Shown here piece by piece: positions 28,716-38,352 of a DNA stretch of 64,000 bases. The DNA is from Escherichia phage ECP2303, in sequence record PP261279.1; one strand, written 5' to 3'. Both the position numbers and the translations under genes were made by a program. The notes under the pieces are model-generated. The model searched no databases and was not told the origin of the DNA. It was given only the letters and a program-made list of their open reading frames with translations. The stretch's first letter is position 1. Every line of letters starts with the position of its first letter.

Positions 28716-28792
28716 TGGTCTCCACGGAGTGATTCGAACACTCGACCTCCTGATCCCAAATCAGGCGCTCTACCAAGCTGAGCTACGCGGAG
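28716..28792 (-). tRNA. tRNA-Pro (anticodon UGG)
   Basis: Hand-folded cloverleaf: acceptor with C1-G72, D-arm GCTCAGCTTGGTAGAGC, anticodon loop UUUGGGA, T-arm GAGTG-TTCGAAT-CACTC, CCA encoded. Confidence 0.7.
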
Positions 28793-28803
28793 TATTTATT
28801 ATT

Positions 28804-28878
28804 TGGTGGCCCTGGGTGGAATTGAACCACCGTCTGGCGATTATGAGTCGCTTGCTTGAACCTTCCAGCTACAGGGCC
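28804..28878 (-). tRNA. tRNA-Met (anticodon CAU; initiator-like loop CUCAUAA)
   Basis: Acceptor GGCCCTG/CAGGGCC, anticodon loop CUCAUAA, T-arm GGTGG-TTCAATT-CCACC, CCA encoded; could alternatively be a lysidine-modified Ile tRNA. Confidence 0.6.
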
Positions 28879-28879
28879 A

Positions 28880-28955
28880 TGGTGCTGATGGCAGGACTTG
28901 AACCTGCAACCTATTGATTACAAATCAATTGCACTGACAATTGTGCTACATCAGC
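28880..28955 (-). tRNA. tRNA-Thr (anticodon UGU)
   Basis: Acceptor GCTGATG/CATCAGC, D-stem GCAC/GTGC, anticodon stem ATTGA/TCAAT with loop UUUGUAA, T-arm GCAGG-TTCAAGT-CCTGC, CCA encoded; 1-nt spacer from tRNA-Met. Confidence 0.7.
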
Positions 28956-28959
28956 AAAA

Positions 28960-29058
28960 GGTGCTAGGTGATGGAATCGAACCACCTATGTATTCAACGA
29001 CTACCTCGTCTATTTTCAGGATTAAAAATCCTCGCCCTTGCCAAAGGGCTTACCTAGC
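28960..29058 (-). tRNA. atypical tRNA-like gene (99 nt; Lys-type UUUUUAA anticodon loop; ~30-nt insertion before the T-arm)
   Basis: Perfect 7-bp acceptor (GCTAGGT/ACCTAGC), D-arm GCCC-TTTGGCAA-GGGC, 4-bp anticodon stem AGGA/TCCT with loop UUUUUAA, extra hairpin ACGA-GGTAG-TCGT, T-arm GGTGG-TTCGATT-CCATC; too long for a canonical type I tRNA and not folding as a standard type II. Confidence 0.35.
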
Positions 29059-29156
29059 GCAATATGTTGACCATGTGGCTAGTCGGCGATGACGACTGTA
29101 ACATTTGATAATCCGGTTCTGCTTCCGGCTTTCGCTTAATTACAAGGTCAACAATG

Positions 29157-29247
29157 TGGCGGAGAGTAATGGAATCGAACCATCATCGAGTTATCCTCAA
29201 CGGGACGGTTTTCAAGACCGCTTGAGCACCATTGCTCCCTACCCTCC
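29157..29247 (-). tRNA. tRNA-Ser (anticodon UGA), type II
   Basis: Anticodon arm GCGGT-CUUGAAA-ACCGT nearly identical to E. coli tRNA-Ser(UGA); long variable arm; T-arm GATGG-TTCGATT-CCATT; CCA encoded; 91 nt. Confidence 0.7.
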
Positions 29248-29361
29248 TTTATAAATTACACTGATAATGACACTGATTTTCGAGCAGTTAGTGACTAGTA
29301 TAAACGACGATAAATATCAATGTCATTATCTGTATGATTTATGCATTTAAAAATATAAATT

Positions 29362-29448
29362 TGGTGGGGAGTGGTGGAGTCGAACCACCCGAGTCGCAAT
29401 GACAATAGATTTACAGTCTACACCGCTACCTCTACGGGATAACTCCCC
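29362..29448 (-). tRNA. tRNA-Tyr (anticodon GUA), type II
   Basis: Anticodon arm GTAGA-CUGUAAA-TCTAT and variable region TGTCATTGCGACTCG resemble E. coli tRNA-Tyr; T-arm GGTGG-TTCGACT-CCACC; CCA encoded; 87 nt. Confidence 0.65.
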
Positions 29449-29452
29449 AATT

Positions 29453-29527
29453 TGGCACCCCGTACTGGACTCGAACCAGTGTCAACGGCTTAGAAGGCCG
29501 CTGCTTTATCCACTAAGCTAACAGGGC
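29453..29527 (-). tRNA. tRNA-Arg (anticodon UCU)
   Basis: Acceptor GCCCTGT/ACGGGGT (two G-U pairs), D-stem GCTT/AAGC, anticodon stem GCGGC/GCCGT with loop CUUCUAA, T-arm ACTGG-TTCGAGT-CCAGT, CCA encoded. Confidence 0.65.
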
Positions 29528-32462: not shown

Positions 32463-33017
32463 TTACTCCCCGCTGTCAATAGCAAGACTCATTGCAATAC
32501 GGTATGCCTCTTCTAATGGTAAGAGTCTCCCCCACACATCCCAACCGACATCAAACTGCCTGCCAAACAACTGCTGTGTGGTTCCGTGAGCATGACCGAA
32601 CAGTTGGACTGATCCGTGAGGCTTTCTGTTCCACTTTGCAAACTGGTAATGGCTCATACAGATCAAATTCTTGTTGTGGCGAAGCTCGTAATAATCTACA
32701 ACCTCATGACCGAACTCTTTCATAATTCTGACAGTCGTTCTTGTGTCATGGTTACCACGAACAAGAATAATATGTCCGTTCAACATATTTAGAACATCTG
32801 GAAGCAGTTTGTTGATATTCTTATCATTAGTGCACGCAATATCCCCCAAGTGAAACACAGTGTCTGCAGGTGACACAACAGAGTTCCACTTGGTGATGAT
32901 TCCCGCATTCATACTGTCAAGATTGTGATCATACTGAGATCTGTGTTTTTGACATGAGTCGAACTCCATTACCCGCTGGTGGAGAAAGTGTGTGTCGCTT
33001 GTTACAAAGTATTTCAT
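32463..33017 (-). CDS. calcineurin-like metallophosphoesterase (putative RNA/DNA 3'-phosphatase)
   Basis: Start at ATG 33017 (GAGGAA RBS); motifs SDTHF, GDIACT, GNHD, GHAHG correspond to metallophosphatase motifs; coupled to the kinase gene. Confidence 0.65.
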   Translation of the reverse strand: MKYFVTSDTHFLHQRVMEFDSCQKHRSQYDHNLDSMNAGIITKWNSVVSPADTVFHLGDIACTNDKNINKLLPDVLNMLNGHIILVRGNHDTRTTVRIMKEFGHEVVDYYELRHNKNLICMSHYQFAKWNRKPHGSVQLFGHAHGTTQQLFGRQFDVGWDVWGRLLPLEEAYRIAMSLAIDSGE

Positions 33018-33024
33018 ACATTCC

Positions 33025-33435
33025 TCATTTAAGTTTAATGCAGTTTTTAAGCTGGCGTTCCATACGATCCACAACCCTGTCTGGAACATCATGAATGCTT
33101 TTATTACCATGGCGGTTTTCAACCACGATCACGGTATAACTATATCCATGACTGATCGCCATGTCAATATATTCTTGCACATATTTTTCTTTTGTAAACG
33201 TATTACTTACCACGATACGGTCGTAGCCCATACGCATCATATCTTCTACGTTATCTTTGCACCATTTTGCTGCAAGTGTTACTTTACTTGCATCCCAATT
33301 GTAATTGCCGTCATCGTCGTACCAGAACATATCGTTCTCAAAATGTGGATACAGACCTTCTAAAGATAGCGCATTTGCCAGTGTTGATTTGCCAGACCCT
33401 GGTAGACCACGCACGATATATAGCATTTTAGACAT
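33025..33435 (-). CDS. P-loop polynucleotide kinase-like protein
   Basis: Start at ATG 33435 (GGAGAG RBS); Walker A GLPGSGKST near N-terminus as in T4 Pnk kinase domain; 136 aa. Confidence 0.6.
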   Translation of the reverse strand: MSKMLYIVRGLPGSGKSTLANALSLEGLYPHFENDMFWYDDDGNYNWDASKVTLAAKWCKDNVEDMMRMGYDRIVVSNTFTKEKYVQEYIDMAISHGYSYTVIVVENRHGNKSIHDVPDRVVDRMERQLKNCIKLK

Positions 33436-33463
33436 AGTAACTCTCCGTTTTAATTTTAATGAT

Positions 33464-33492
33464 AGTATACCTAACTGTTTTGTTAATTTCAA
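33464..33492 (-). promoter_or_regulatory. sigma70-type promoter for the kinase/phosphatase operon
   Basis: Minus-strand TTGAAA, 17-nt spacer, TATACT; about 30 nt upstream of the kinase start. Confidence 0.4.
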
Positions 33493-33495
33493 GTG

Positions 33496-33524
33496 TTGAC
33501 ACCAGGTTATTTGTGTGGCAGAAT
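33496..33524 (+). promoter_or_regulatory. sigma70-type promoter opening the plus-strand block
   Basis: TTGACA, 17-nt spacer ending TGTGG, then CAGAAT; divergent from the minus-strand promoter. Confidence 0.4.
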
Positions 33525-33556
33525 AAAGGGACAAAATGACAAATGAGGAATGTATG

Positions 33557-34471
33557 ATGAAGTATTTTAATGCAGACGACCTGGTTGACAAAGGTCTTGT
33601 AACCAGCAGATATTACCCAGATCTTGGATTAAAGATCTACAAATATGCCAGAAAAGTATTCTACAACAATTTATGGCATTTGTCTCCGCGTTTACTAGAG
33701 TGCCGAGGCATTGTTGTCGGTAATGAAGGAAATGTTGTGGCATGGCCCTTCACAAAAGTGTTTAATTTGGGAGAAAACTCCACCAACCTGCCTGACAATA
33801 AACTTGTGACGGCGGTAGAGAAAAAGAACGGATTCCTTGGTGTGGTATCATCTCATAAAGGTGAACTATTGTTTTCAACAACCGGGTCTCTTGATTCTCC
33901 ATATTGTAACCTTGCAAAGGAAACCATCCAGGAGCAATGTGGTAATTTAGATCTCATCAAAAAGGTTATGGGCCATGAAAACATGACATTCATGTTTGAA
34001 ATTTGTCACCCTTCAGATCCGCATATTGTTCAGGAAGACCATGGCGCATATTTGATAGGTTGCAGATATAACGATTCTGGAATAATGCTACCAGAAGCAG
34101 CTTTAGATGGGATTGCCAAATACCTTGGTGCAAAACGTCCTCACACTGTGCGTGAAATTCCGTTCAGCTATGCAAAAGAATTAGCTGCAGAAACAAGAGG
34201 TGAAGGGTATATGATTCGTAAGCCTTACTACCCTTATGATCTGCAGCTGAAGATCAAGTCTCCATACTATTTGGCACGGAAGGCCGTAATGAGGGGTAAA
34301 GCTTGGAAGATTTGGGATGATGATATCTTTAAACGTATTGACGAAGAGTTTTACGGCATGGTAAACTTCATTCGTAACAATTACACAGAAGATGTGTGGA
34401 ACTGCCTCCTAGAGCAGGAACGCCGTGAGATACTTGACTGCTATTTCCACAACGAGGACTATATGCAATGA
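33557..34471 (+). CDS. RNA ligase 1 (T4 RnlA-like)
   Basis: LECRGIVVGNEG and FNLGEN match T4 Rnl1 (LECRGIMFEMDG, FNLNEN); nucleotidyltransferase motif I KKNGFL matches KEDGSL; start assigned to ATG with GAGGAA RBS (track start 33536). Confidence 0.75.
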   Translation: MKYFNADDLVDKGLVTSRYYPDLGLKIYKYARKVFYNNLWHLSPRLLECRGIVVGNEGNVVAWPFTKVFNLGENSTNLPDNKLVTAVEKKNGFLGVVSSHKGELLFSTTGSLDSPYCNLAKETIQEQCGNLDLIKKVMGHENMTFMFEICHPSDPHIVQEDHGAYLIGCRYNDSGIMLPEAALDGIAKYLGAKRPHTVREIPFSYAKELAAETRGEGYMIRKPYYPYDLQLKIKSPYYLARKAVMRGKAWKIWDDDIFKRIDEEFYGMVNFIRNNYTEDVWNCLLEQERREILDCYFHNEDYMQ

Positions 34472-34818
34472 AGAAGTTGATTGTGTGGCTGGATGACTTG
34501 AGAGATCCGTCAAATTATGGGCTCCCAGATGCTCTTTGGCTAAAGAATTCCTCTGAGTTTATGGATTTTATTAACGATAAGGGAAAGCTCTACAGGCGCG
34601 TTTCTGAGTGGCACATGGACAACGACCTTGGAGAGGTATTTGAAGGGTACGATTGCCTATCTATGCTGGAGGAAAAATTTGTATTTGGTAAGCCTCCTGT
34701 AGTTGACAACGTGAAGATTTTCGTGCATACTTCTAACCCATCAGCTGCTCGTAAATTCATGCTTGCTGCTGACTCGTTTAAAAAGTTTGGAATAGAGATT
34801 AAACAAAACATCTACTGA
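34468..34818 (+). CDS. hypothetical protein
   Basis: 116-aa ORF coupled between RNA ligase and Sir2-like genes; no motif recognised. Confidence 0.4.
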   Translation: MKKLIVWLDDLRDPSNYGLPDALWLKNSSEFMDFINDKGKLYRRVSEWHMDNDLGEVFEGYDCLSMLEEKFVFGKPPVVDNVKIFVHTSNPSAARKFMLAADSFKKFGIEIKQNIY

Positions 34819-34826
34819 GGACACTT

Positions 34827-35588
34827 ATGCGACGACTGATCATTATCTCCGGTGCTGGTTTGAGCGCTGAATCTGGTATCCCAACTTTCCGATCTGGTGG
34901 CACTGCAATGTGGGAGAATTTCAGCATCGATGAGGTGTGTAACATCCACACCTTTGCCAAGAACTACTATAAGGTTCATGACTTTTACAATGCACGGCGT
35001 GTAGCTCTTGGCAGTGTTGATCCTAACCTTGCACATCTCCGGATCGCTGAGTGGTATTCCCGCTGGTCTGGTCGTGTGATCAACCTGACCACCAATGTAG
35101 ATGATTTGCTGGAGCGTGCTGGTGTAAAACATGAAGATATTTTACATGTCCACGGATATTTGCCAGAAATAGTCTACAAGGATGATGAAGGGAGTAACGT
35201 CATTAAAGACATTGGATACTCTGAGGTAGATGCAAGCAAGTATACTTGGGTTAAGCCTAATGTAGTGTTCTTCGGAGAAGTAGCTCCAAAGTATACAGAC
35301 ATGTATGACCTGTTGACTTCTCTGACGAGCAATGATATGGTTATCCTTGTAGGGTGCTCCAACACAGTTATCAATTTTAACTGGGAGCTATTCCCTGCCT
35401 GTAATAAGGGGACCAAACTGCTGATCGTTAACAAATACGACTCACAGCATTTAGGGGAGAATGGCATTTCACGTAGTGACATTTACCAGTATGAGGATCG
35501 CGGCATCCCAGTTTGGTTTAACGGGGCTGTTGACGCTTTCTCTGATAAAACATTCATTGACATCGTAGAAAACTTTATGGAACTGTAA
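34827..35588 (+). CDS. Sir2-family (sirtuin-like) NAD-dependent protein, lacking the zinc ribbon
   Basis: GAGLSAESGIPTFR, TTNVDDLLERAG, catalytic-type HG (LHVHGYL), VVFFGE, LVGCS; no CxxC...CxxC zinc motif. Confidence 0.8.
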   Translation: MRRLIIISGAGLSAESGIPTFRSGGTAMWENFSIDEVCNIHTFAKNYYKVHDFYNARRVALGSVDPNLAHLRIAEWYSRWSGRVINLTTNVDDLLERAGVKHEDILHVHGYLPEIVYKDDEGSNVIKDIGYSEVDASKYTWVKPNVVFFGEVAPKYTDMYDLLTSLTSNDMVILVGCSNTVINFNWELFPACNKGTKLLIVNKYDSQHLGENGISRSDIYQYEDRGIPVWFNGAVDAFSDKTFIDIVENFMEL

Positions 35589-35602
35589 GCGGAGGCCTTT
35601 TA

Positions 35603-36316
35603 ATGCTGAATACTAAACTGATTGACAACTTGGAAAAACTGTCTCAGCCTGAAAACTACCTTTGGTCTGCCAACTGGGTGGAAAATTGGAACCGTGTAGC
35701 AGCTAAAGTGAAAAAATCATACACACCATTCGAACTTCAGCTGAGTTTCATTGAGGAAGAGTTCAATGAAGTTTTGGAAGAGTTGGAGAAAGGTGATGGT
35801 GGGGATCATCTCCTAAAAGAGGCCTGCGATCTTCACGTTGTCACAAGTTATGCCGCTTATCTTGTTAACGATAACCATGAAAAGTGGTCAAACCTGTTTG
35901 ATAATCCGCGAGGTCTTAAGTTTAAGATCGGTGAATTTTATGATACATTGATCGCTGCGAAAAATACCTCTAAGCAAAGAGCGTCTGCTTACCGCTTAGC
36001 AGAGTTGTCAACAGCTTTGCTGTTCCAGCTTCGCGGTGATGTGTGCGGGATGATGCGGAAGGTTCTAAAATCTAATGACAGCAAGTTTGCACGCGTCAAC
36101 CATCTGCGGTATTCACACGGTGCCAGTGCAGATATGCCTGCTGAACAACTTATCGAGTTGGAGATTAAAGATCTTGAGCGACGCTTTGATGGTCGCTATG
36201 AAGGTTTTGTTGCTAAAGAAGAATTCTACAACGGAAATAAAGTTATCATATTCCTCGACAGTAAAGGTAAGATTATGAAGCCTTCAAGCTTCAAGGATGT
36301 AACAGAATATATTTAA
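35603..36316 (+). CDS. MazG-like nucleotide pyrophosphohydrolase domain protein (putative)
   Basis: N-terminal FIEEEFNEVLEELEKGD resembles the EExxE/ExxE MazG motif; C-terminal 120 aa unassigned. Confidence 0.45.
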   Translation: MLNTKLIDNLEKLSQPENYLWSANWVENWNRVAAKVKKSYTPFELQLSFIEEEFNEVLEELEKGDGGDHLLKEACDLHVVTSYAAYLVNDNHEKWSNLFDNPRGLKFKIGEFYDTLIAAKNTSKQRASAYRLAELSTALLFQLRGDVCGMMRKVLKSNDSKFARVNHLRYSHGASADMPAEQLIELEIKDLERRFDGRYEGFVAKEEFYNGNKVIIFLDSKGKIMKPSSFKDVTEYI

Positions 36317-36322
36317 TAACAT

Positions 36323-36345
36323 AGCCGGGGCGATCCCGGCTTTAC
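36323..36345 (+). terminator. Rho-independent terminator
   Basis: GCCGGG-gcgau-CCCGGC followed by TTTACTTGTTT. Confidence 0.6.
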
Positions 36346-36380: not shown

Positions 36381-36689
36381 ATGTACAAGCACTCCAGAGA
36401 TCTTGAAAACGATGCTGTGTTTGGGGATCAGATGAAAGAATTGGTTAAACTTATAGGTAGGATAGAGGATAAGTTTGACACTAAGATCTACATCGACAGC
36501 AAAGTATTCAACCACAAAATATGGACAAATCTGTGTGTTGGACTGCATGGAGATAAAGATGTGGTAAATTTAGTTGTAATTAAGTTCATAGTGTGGCAGA
36601 ATAAAACTATAAATTATTACGATCCGCACCTGCTTGTTTACCCGATAAAAGACCTATTAGAGAAGGAGGACTGCAATGCCGTTATTTAA
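36381..36689 (+). CDS. hypothetical protein
   Basis: 102-aa ORF. Confidence 0.4.
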   Translation: MYKHSRDLENDAVFGDQMKELVKLIGRIEDKFDTKIYIDSKVFNHKIWTNLCVGLHGDKDVVNLVVIKFIVWQNKTINYYDPHLLVYPIKDLLEKEDCNAVI

Positions 36690-36945
36690 TCTTGCTAAAC
36701 CTGTAGAAGCACACCAGTTTGACGGAAGCTCTTCATCAGTATCTGATCTGCAACGGTGGATTGATACAGGTGTGTTTACACCGTCACCTGTTCGGACCAG
36801 AGATATTCTTCGCATGTGTGAGCTTGTGGAGCCGTTTGGTAACCTGGTCTTGTACCAAGGGGATTGGTTAGTTGACTTTATGGGAGACTGGTTGGTAATG
36901 AGCAAAGAAGAGATGTTTAAAATTTTTAAGGAAGAGGCTGAGTAA
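36676..36945 (+). CDS. hypothetical protein
   Basis: 89-aa ORF coupled to the ligase gene. Confidence 0.4.
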   Translation: MPLFNLAKPVEAHQFDGSSSSVSDLQRWIDTGVFTPSPVRTRDILRMCELVEPFGNLVLYQGDWLVDFMGDWLVMSKEEMFKIFKEEAE

Positions 36946-38228: not shown

Positions 38229-38352
38229 TGTAGGAAGGTTTAGTAGGTAACGGTAGCCAATTGAATGATGGTTTTTCAATTGGCACCTGCATAACCACAT
38301 TATGCAGTGTTGTTGATCGGGTTAGTTATGAGTAAATTGGAGAGTATGAAAA

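Follow-up and report, generated by a model that had tools for sequence, protein, structure and literature searches.

The stretch of DNA analyzed here (hereafter the window) comprises 64,000 nucleotides of Escherichia phage ECP2303 (sequence record PP261279.1) and encodes a sirtuin of 253 amino acids that is devoid of the zinc module. Judged by gene order and family matches, the sirtuin gene and its two neighbors appear to make up the distal end of an accessory module of six genes that extends from position 32463 to 36316. We assign a probability of roughly 40% to the explanation, taken as a whole, that this module heals and seals RNA and that the sirtuin adds a dephosphorylation step dependent on nicotinamide adenine dinucleotide (NAD+). 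The target would most plausibly be tRNA that has been cleaved by anticodon nucleases of the host or by other metal-independent RNases. Within this explanation the assignment to the module, which is moderately supported, is likelier than the specific chemistry of the sirtuin, which we infer together with all substrates and reaction steps.

The sirtuin matched the Pfam family SIR2 (PF02146) over profile positions 1-178 of 180 with 94.5 bits (cut-off 24, E = 9.8e-27), a match that is therefore far beyond chance. An earlier note on this DNA had recognized the NAD-binding and catalytic signatures of a phage sirtuin, all of which were located: GAGLSAESGIPTFR at residues 9-22, TTNVDDL at 88-94, HG at 109-110 and FFGE at 148-151. 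In 69 homologues, G9-A10-G11, F21, R22, Y54, R57, R58, N90, D92, H109, G110, F148, F149 and E151 were invariant, and G150 was conserved in at least 90%. The residues of the NAD+ pocket and of the catalytic center are intact. The absence of zinc-ribbon CxxC cysteines, also noticed before, was borne out, as the protein possesses only three cysteines (C38, C177 and C192) and not a single CxxC pair; the two CxxC knuckles that make up the Cys4 zinc module in the small domain were not found in it. In an alignment with zinc-bearing relatives, including phage versions (the 518-kb contig L061 and L060), VYKDD stands in place of the first CxxC and the second knuckle is missing through a deletion, while the motif D(I/V)GY is common to both forms. 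An exhaustive search of 1.84 billion cluster representatives yielded 5,636 sirtuin matches at E <= 0.001. The segment between HG and FGE could be delimited in 19 of the 30 best matches, 16 of which did not contain CxxC; the lower-ranked matches were mostly four-cysteine forms. Thus, a sizeable clade, residing largely on phage-sized contigs, has the zinc-less state as a derived trait.

The AF2 model of the sirtuin, for which the 69 homologues served as input, is confident, with a predicted local distance difference test (pLDDT) value of 90.2, and still contains a three-stranded sheet at residues 110-146. Its top match among the PDB structures was Escherichia coli CobB (1S5P, 6RXQ; Foldseek 1e-18), with template modeling (TM) scores of 0.75 by query length and 0.83 by target length, and human SIRT5 was also matched. 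The best sequence matches were again SIRT5 (4.9e-21) and E. coli CobB (6.3e-21). As CobB and SIRT5 are closest to it in both sequence and structure, the protein is a class III-like sirtuin, unlike the SIR2 domains of defense systems. It shares with both enzymes the fold, the motifs GAGxS, (T/Q)N(I/V)D, HG and FGE and a Tyr-x-x-Arg pair for acidic acyl groups. In the HMMER alignment the segment FYNARR lies over FYHYRR of SIRT5, Y54 and R57 occupying the position of the anion-binding pair. The SIRT5 segment contains Tyr102 and Arg105, the residues by which this enzyme holds the carboxylate of succinyl- or malonyl-lysine. The phage protein differs from CobB and SIRT5 by an identity of only about 25-27% in the structural alignment, by TTN in place of TQN, by the clade-specific D(I/V)GY, by the loss of the zinc knuckles and by its phage-specific gene context. 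The curated NCBIfam CobB models were all matched well under their cut-offs (the best with 121 bits instead of 243, the CobB equivalog with 102 instead of 320). Judged by these scores, the protein is not an ordinary CobB, and the low scores together with the lost knuckles are consistent with a diverged substrate.

We rejected a defense-type SIR2 identity, with which the earlier note had drawn an analogy. None of the proteins encoded by the sirtuin gene and its two neighbors matched a PADLOC family at E <= 0.01, and Pfam SIR2_2 was matched by the sirtuin with 14.2 bits, i.e., below the threshold of 24.5. Furthermore, none of the sensor or partner domains SLOG, HerA, pAgo and TIR is fused or adjacent to the sirtuin, whose neighbors are an RNA ligase, a cREC protein, a MazG-like protein, a kinase and a phosphoesterase. 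With the defense SIR2 NADases (ThsA, DSR1/2, SIR2-HerA, SPARSA) it has in common the broad superfamily, NAD+ as (here predicted) substrate and the lack of a canonical zinc ribbon; it differs from them by its location in a repair operon of a lytic phage.

The upstream protein of 116 amino acids, previously taken to have an unknown fold, turned out to match a known Pfam family, PF20274 cREC_REC (E = 4.5e-14; 53.3 bits, cut-off 27), and is thus a cyclic-phosphate-processing receiver-like domain (cREC) protein. Among 21 homologues, D51, D53, S89, N90 and K96 were invariant, and D9, D10 and T88 were conserved in at least 90%. In receiver domains, the counterparts of these residues are the acidic pair, the region of the acceptor aspartate, the Thr/Ser position and the Lys; no histidine kinase is encoded in the annotated cREC neighborhood. 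The D-x-D arrangement may be likened to the pair of nucleophile and acid/base residues in HAD phosphatases, which would fit the partner role played by HAD_SAK_2 in T5-like phages. The homologue search disclosed only standalone relatives of 106-121 amino acids and a few shorter fragments, but no fusions; the Nudix-cREC fusion described below was found through a jumbo-phage record. The domain was defined in a study of jumbo phages (PMC7824862), where it is said to occur only in NAD+/cyclic-phosphate contexts, and its hydrolysis of cyclic phosphates or phosphoesters is treated as a prediction (PMC9503650, PMC7824862).

According to the open reading frame listing, the genes for the cREC, sirtuin and 237-amino-acid MazG-like proteins are three tightly spaced reading frames on the plus strand (Table 1), which agrees with the coupling to a small upstream protein and a downstream pyrophosphohydrolase-like protein reported before. 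Beyond this trio, we found an Rnl1-type RNA ligase gene in the same operon as well as divergent kinase and phosphoesterase genes, and Pfam and PHROG assignments were obtained for all six genes of the module. The ligase matched the NCBIfam family of T4 RnlA under the cut-off (4.9e-10). The kinase is annotated as polynucleotide kinase in the phages HMD-6 and Bas54, and both HMD-6 and FV3 label the 184-amino-acid product a phosphoesterase. The ligase gene shares the bases of its stop codon with the start of the cREC gene (ATGA, 34468-34471), and the MazG-like gene begins 14 nucleotides after the stop of the sirtuin gene. Upstream of the ligase gene there is a sigma-70-like site on the plus strand (33496-33524; TTGACA, a 17-nucleotide spacer and CAGAAT with TG), and, in the opposite direction, one on the minus strand (33492-33464; TTGAAA, a 17-nucleotide spacer and TATACT). 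Seven bases past the stop of the MazG-like gene follows a hairpin, at the matching stretch of which the record of phage Gotham contains an annotated terminator. The genes for ligase, cREC, sirtuin and MazG-like protein are therewith bracketed by a promoter-like site and a hairpin and probably form a four-gene operon, the function of both elements being predicted from consensus matches. In this layout, the divergent promoter region would drive the kinase and metallophosphoesterase genes in one direction and the four-gene operon in the other, up to the terminator. At the same region (approximately 33400-33560) the GC skew flips its sign, marking the switch of transcription direction between the two halves of the window.

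Table 1. Features of the six-gene module in the window and transposon insertion data for the corresponding genes of phage Bas54 on E. coli K-12.
Feature	Position	Strand	Matches or sequence	Bas54 gene	TA sites with insertions	Category
Calcineurin-like metallophosphoesterase (184 amino acids from ATG at 33017; predicted RNA 3'-end healing)	32463..33017	-	Pfam Metallophos and Metallophos_2 ~5e-6; PHROG 'phosphoesterase' 5e-52	bas54_0211	26/27	Non-essential
P-loop kinase (136 amino acids from ATG at 33435; predicted polynucleotide 5'-kinase)	33025..33435	-	Pfam AAA_33 9.7e-10; PHROG polynucleotide kinase 9e-10	bas54_0210	33/36	Non-essential
Divergent promoter-like region between kinase (-) and RNA ligase (+)	33464..33524	both	sigma-70-like consensus matches only			
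Rnl1-type (T4 RnlA-like) ATP-dependent RNA ligase (311 amino acids), operon gene 1	33536..34471	+	Pfam RNA_lig_T4_1 8.3e-15; PHROG 1.8e-66	bas54_0209	56/60	Non-essential
cREC protein (116 amino acids)	34468..34818	+	Pfam PF20274 4.5e-14	bas54_0208	16/21	Intermediate
Zinc-less class III-like sirtuin (253 amino acids)	34827..35588	+	Pfam SIR2 9.8e-27	bas54_0207	48/51	Non-essential
MazG/dimeric-dUTPase-like protein of the all-alpha NTP-pyrophosphohydrolase superfamily (237 amino acids), last operon gene	35603..36316	+		bas54_0206	35/40	Non-essential
Intrinsic-terminator-like GC-rich hairpin closing the four-gene operon	36323..36341	predicted on both	AGCCGGGG-CGA-TCCCGGCT, then T-rich tail			

A segment of 4.8 kb spanning the trio agrees at 100% identity with Escherichia phage ECP2309 and shares 94-99% identity with over 100 rV5/FV3-like phages assigned to the genus Vequintavirus. 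By this identity, the source phage belongs to the same genus as an rV5/FV3-like E. coli phage. In related records the products of the three genes are labeled 'hypothetical' or 'cyclic-phosphate processing receiver domain-containing protein', 'Sir2 (NAD-dependent deacetylase)' and 'nucleotide pyrophosphohydrolase', respectively. Searches of 50,697 phage records revealed homologues of the sirtuin in 990 of them, including T5 (where it is annotated 'cobb: putative transferase'), T5-like, Mydo-like, phi92-like and jumbo phages and Vequintavirinae. The cREC and MazG-like proteins had homologues in 356 and 323 records, and the ligase in 765, among them many Pseudomonas and Streptomyces phages without the sirtuin.

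The neighborhood was also scanned in 61 viral-contig loci by comparison with the window proteins. Mydo-like loci encode on one strand phosphoesterase, RNA ligase, cREC, kinase, Sir2 and DNA ligase, and phi92-like loci contain genes for phosphoesterase, RNA ligase, kinase, a 160-amino-acid protein, Sir2 and DNA ligase. At Sir2 identities of 50-58%, both groups have thus kept the gene set, including the phosphoesterase and the kinase beside Sir2, in a rearranged order. The T5-like loci contain HAD_SAK_2, a member of the 'Swiss-army-knife' family of RNA-end phosphatases, followed by a 93-amino-acid protein and the orthologous Sir2. In the Yersinia jumbo phage fHe-Yen9-04 (NC_042116.1, 50777-61397; L068) we found a run of genes for an NMNAT-like cytidyltransferase, NadV, a 2H phosphodiesterase (Acb1-like, PF23474, 2.6e-17), Sir2 and, directly after it, a Nudt16-like Nudix domain fused to cREC. 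At two further loci (L058 and L059) the sirtuin is located beside NAMPT and phosphoribosyl pyrophosphate (PRPP) synthetase. Judged by these family matches, what constantly accompanies the sirtuin is a phosphoesterase belonging to the chemistry of RNA ends or of ADP-ribose, and at no locus did we find a Macro domain or a defense-type sensor in this role; a Pfam scan of ten neighboring window proteins likewise gave no match to a Macro domain.

Two observations concern single proteins of these loci. The HAD_SAK_2 phosphatase of one T5-like contig (L063:5235-5723) also matches phrog_18062, 'Sir2 (NAD-dependent deacetylase)', with 1.8e-10, a label probably carried over from the adjoining gene. The conserved 160-amino-acid protein of phi92-like phages (e.g., L042:5308-5790; phrog_652) occupies the slot between kinase and Sir2 in which Mydo-like phages possess cREC, and may be a non-homologous replacement of it. 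No named family was found for this protein in Pfam, PDB sequence and PHROG searches, and a NADAR domain, which we had initially suspected, was dropped.

The neighborhood and its interpretation by analogy with KptA are already known, and annotations of the gene family are widespread. Iyer, Burroughs, Anantharaman & Aravind 2022 (Viruses 14:1977, PMC9503650, section 3.7.3) described this neighborhood as type 2, with Escherichia phage V5 and Proteus phage Mydo as prototypes, and predicted that the sirtuin is KptA-like and strips 2'-phosphates from RNA, while associated phosphoesterases would open the cyclic phosphate or process ADP-ribose cyclic phosphate. The window locus is this published system: the phage group, the sirtuin, the T4-like RNA ligase, cREC, the nucleotide kinase, the MazG-superfamily pyrophosphatase, the calcineurin-like phosphoesterase and the lack of an adjacent Macro domain agree, and we noted no substantive difference. 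What the present analysis adds are the boundaries of the operon, the finding that the zinc knuckles are lost while the SIRT5-type Tyr/Arg pair is kept, the recognition of a dimeric-dUTPase-like fold in the 'MazG' protein and the dispensability in Bas54.

In the working order of steps, which follows Iyer et al. 2022, the cut RNA would carry a 2',3'-cyclic phosphate and a 5'-OH. The 5' end would be phosphorylated by the kinase, the cyclic phosphate would be opened by cREC, acting as a REC/HAD-like aspartate phosphoesterase, and/or by the metallophosphoesterase, and the break would be sealed by the Rnl1-type ligase. A leftover 2'-phosphate or a terminal 2'/3'-phosphate would then be stripped by the sirtuin at the expense of NAD+, a phosphate oxygen attacking C1'' of NAD+ and displacing nicotinamide. 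Finally, the resulting ADP-ribose cyclic phosphate would be cleared by cREC and possibly also by the MazG-like pyrophosphatase. Phosphate removal by a sirtuin is chemically plausible because sirtuins and Tpt1 follow parallel two-step courses. In sirtuins, the acyl oxygen attacks C1'' of NAD+, and the ribose 2''-OH then attacks the acyl carbon. In Tpt1, the phosphate oxygen attacks C1'', and the 2''-OH then attacks phosphorus (e.g., PMC6097658); certain Tpt1 enzymes strip terminal 2'/3'-phosphates as well (PMC6573784). The proposed likeness to Tpt1/KptA, predicted on the side of the sirtuin, consists in the dependence on NAD+, the displacement of nicotinamide by an oxygen nucleophile and the subsequent attack by the 2''-OH of ADP-ribose, and both enzymes are associated with genes for RNA ligase, kinase and cyclic phosphodiesterase. 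However, an ADP-ribosyltransferase fold stands against a Rossmann-type sirtuin; the two are unrelated and share a functional analogy only. By analogy with SIRT5, the conserved Tyr/Arg anion pocket could hold the phosphate.

That the zinc-less sirtuin is in fact an RNA 2'- (or terminal 2'/3'-) phosphotransferase, i.e., a non-homologous substitute for Tpt1/KptA and not a protein deacylase, we regard as rather doubtful when this claim is taken by itself. If so, it may work together with an aspartate-nucleophile phosphoesterase, which is cREC here and HAD_SAK_2 in T5-like phages. A re-use of the SIRT5-type pocket for phosphate and a minimal core of 'sirtuin plus Asp-phosphoesterase' are what we infer from these comparisons.

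Genetic data are available for the Vequintavirinae phage Bas54, whose cluster is identical to that of the window in gene order and gene lengths. In the transposon data obtained on E. coli K-12 (HIDEN-SEQ preprint, 10.1101/2025.11.20.689424), five of the six genes were classified as non-essential and cREC as intermediate (Table 1). This tolerance of insertions is as expected for a conditional accessory module.

Several observations weigh against the RNA-repair explanation. Kinase, metallophosphoesterase and Rnl1 already make up a complete heal-and-seal set in the style of T4 or Clostridium Pnkp, a route that leaves a 2'-OH; therefore, a 2'-phosphotransferase is not obviously needed. The T4 Pnkp-Rnl1 and Clostridium thermocellum Pnkp systems share with the module an Rnl1-type ligase, a P-loop 5'-kinase and a 3'-end phosphoesterase directed against host RNA cleavage, but in the phage module kinase and phosphatase are separate, and cREC, sirtuin and MazG-like protein are without a T4 counterpart. 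In its calcineurin-type phosphoesterase the module is similar to the bacterial Pnkp arrangement. Moreover, the closest characterized relatives of the sirtuin are protein lysine deacylases, and FFGE and HG as residues of the acyl-lysine tunnel are intact. The sirtuin is not always accompanied by an RNA ligase: no ligase lies near it in the T5-like loci, and 287 Salmonella-phage records matched Sir2 (largely T5-like among the matches listed) compared to only 14 that matched the ligase. Nor is the MazG-like gene a direct neighbor of Sir2 in Mydo-like and phi92-like phages; in the former it is located 2-3 kb further on. The sirtuin clade is acidic (median isoelectric point 5.2; net charge of this protein about -11), which counts weakly against direct RNA binding, though the ligase of the window is likewise acidic and the isoelectric point is thus not decisive. 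In the clinical-strain resampling comparison, none of the six Bas54 genes changed (sirtuin: log2 fold change 0.13, adjusted p = 1). Lastly, our literature search found no biochemical or genetic test of the substrate of a phage sirtuin; on this clade it returned two comparative papers of the Aravind laboratory and the HIDEN-SEQ essentiality data only. A knockout screen of DruSM1 was set aside since it concerns a defense SIR2-HerA.

The 237-amino-acid protein deserves separate consideration. Its residues E51-E53, E56 and D76 show no variation, E73 is conserved in at least 90%, and together they form the metal-binding motifs EExxE and ExxD on a four-helix core; the protein therefore belongs to the all-alpha NTP-pyrophosphohydrolase superfamily. 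In structural comparisons the dimeric dUTPase of a staphylococcal phage scored highest (12.6), followed by the dUTPases of Campylobacter jejuni (9.7) and Leishmania major (8.4) and by MazG (8.0). Pfam MazG and dUTPase_2, NCBIfam and a profile search of PDB sequences gave no match, and PRA-PH was matched with 13.7 bits, under the cut-off of 21.3. Besides the lack of curated-family matches, a C-terminal beta-hairpin region with the invariant sequence GKIMKPSSF distinguishes the protein from dimeric dUTPases, MazG and HisE. The protein may be a house-cleaning enzyme of the dUTPase/dCTPase type for DNA precursors and no partner of the sirtuin. We consider this a serious alternative for the MazG-like gene, with chances somewhat short of even, because no other dUTPase is annotated in FV3 outside of 50-60 kb (a stretch that was not read, annotation moreover being no proof of absence), while ThyX and ribonucleotide reductases are. 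On the other hand, in Vequintavirus the gene is the last of the sirtuin operon, close behind the sirtuin gene and just before the terminator, Iyer et al. count MazG within the neighborhood (PMC9503650), and jumbo phages place a different pyrophosphatase (Nudix) after Sir2, which suggests a pyrophosphatase step in the pathway.

As to the sirtuin itself, the best-surviving alternative, although unlikely in our estimation, is a lysine deacylase of the CobB/SIRT5 type (deacetylase or desuccinylase) that remodels the acylation of host or phage proteins. Its RNA-repair neighbors would then merely belong to a general early-gene region of nucleic-acid metabolism without a shared pathway. The top sequence and structural matches, the Tyr/Arg pair, the conserved tunnel residues, the annotation in most database records and the acidic, not RNA-binding-like nature of the protein all speak for it. 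Such an enzyme, however, would hardly be expected to score so far under all curated CobB equivalog cut-offs, to have lost its zinc module and to form a phage-centered clade. Furthermore, the neighbors in four phage lineages are RNA-end or ADP-ribose phosphoesterases, which a generic deacylase does not need, and the gene context does not point to any target protein.

Another alternative, which we judge distinctly improbable, is that sirtuin and cREC, together with Nudix, 2H or MazG, could constitute not an RNA-repair system but an NAD+/ADP-ribose counter-defense module which, alongside phage NAD+ salvage, converts or destroys ADP-ribose-derived or cyclic-nucleotide immune signals or the products of host NADases. 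The gene run of fHe-Yen9-04, the NAMPT and PRPP synthetase genes at two loci, the contexts in which cREC is said to occur and the dispensability of the cluster on K-12 would agree with this. Yet the window and the closest lineages have RNA ligase, kinase and phosphoesterase genes instead of NAD+ salvage genes as neighbors, an NAD+ consumer would be an odd weapon against NAD+-depleting defenses, and adjacency to NadV is equally expected of any NAD+-dependent phage enzyme. Moreover, none of the anti-defense screens found in our literature searches reports this sirtuin. In a broader sense, the counter-defense role raised in the earlier note stays plausible as repair of RNA cut by the host. The host takeover proposed there, in which a minimal Sir2 acts as NADase or as protein or nucleic-acid ADP-ribosyltransferase like defense SIR2 effectors or SirTM-type sirtuins, found no specific support and is very improbable: the NAD+-binding and catalytic residues are intact and other sirtuin clades ADP-ribosylate proteins (reviewed in PMC9503650), but likeness to defense SIR2 models is lacking, a Macro domain, the usual companion of ADP-ribosylating sirtuins, is not adjacent, and the Bas54 gene is dispensable on K-12 without fitness cost, which argues against a core takeover role.

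Outside of the module, seven tRNA genes are located 4-5 kb upstream of the cluster (28716-29527), which speaks for the RNA-repair explanation, and an Rfam scan of 28.5-38.5 kb detected tRNAs only, with no known RNA element within the trio region. One gene of the tRNA cluster (28962-29058, minus strand; 97-99 nucleotides) was reported by ARAGORN as 'tRNA-???' with a four-base anticodon. It reached 35.5 bits with Rfam tRNA (cut-off 29) and lacks an annotation in the RefSeq record of FV3; this tRNA may contain an intron or be unusual in some other way. The operon terminator is separated from the DNA ligase gene by two small open reading frames (36381-36945) of 102 and 89 amino acids, neither with a Pfam match, which accompany the cluster at differing positions in Mydo-like and phi92-like phages. 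HMD-6 contains an HNH endonuclease gene between DNA ligase and lysozyme (L001 9730-10599), where the window has a gap of 124 bp (38229-38352); this looks like a presence/absence polymorphism of a homing endonuclease. Four records labeled 'Campylobacter phage' (MG065676.1, MG065644.1, MG065677.1 and MG065654.1; host C. jejuni) are 88-100% identical to E. coli rV5-like phages over the genes treated here, so that their host labels are probably wrong or due to contamination.

The prediction of an NAD+-dependent RNA-healing step can easily be tested directly, as a transposon library exists for the closely related phage Bas54. If it is true, the sirtuin fold would gain a second chemistry and the protein would be the first sirtuin directed at nucleic acids. 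Phages would have at their disposal a 2'-phosphate route to tRNA repair in the style of yeast and plants, and T5 and rV5, which are common phages, would carry an NAD+-dependent step of RNA healing without a counterpart in T4. Such a step would be relevant for the survival of phages under tRNA-cleaving defenses and would provide a reason for the investment of phages in NAD+ salvage.

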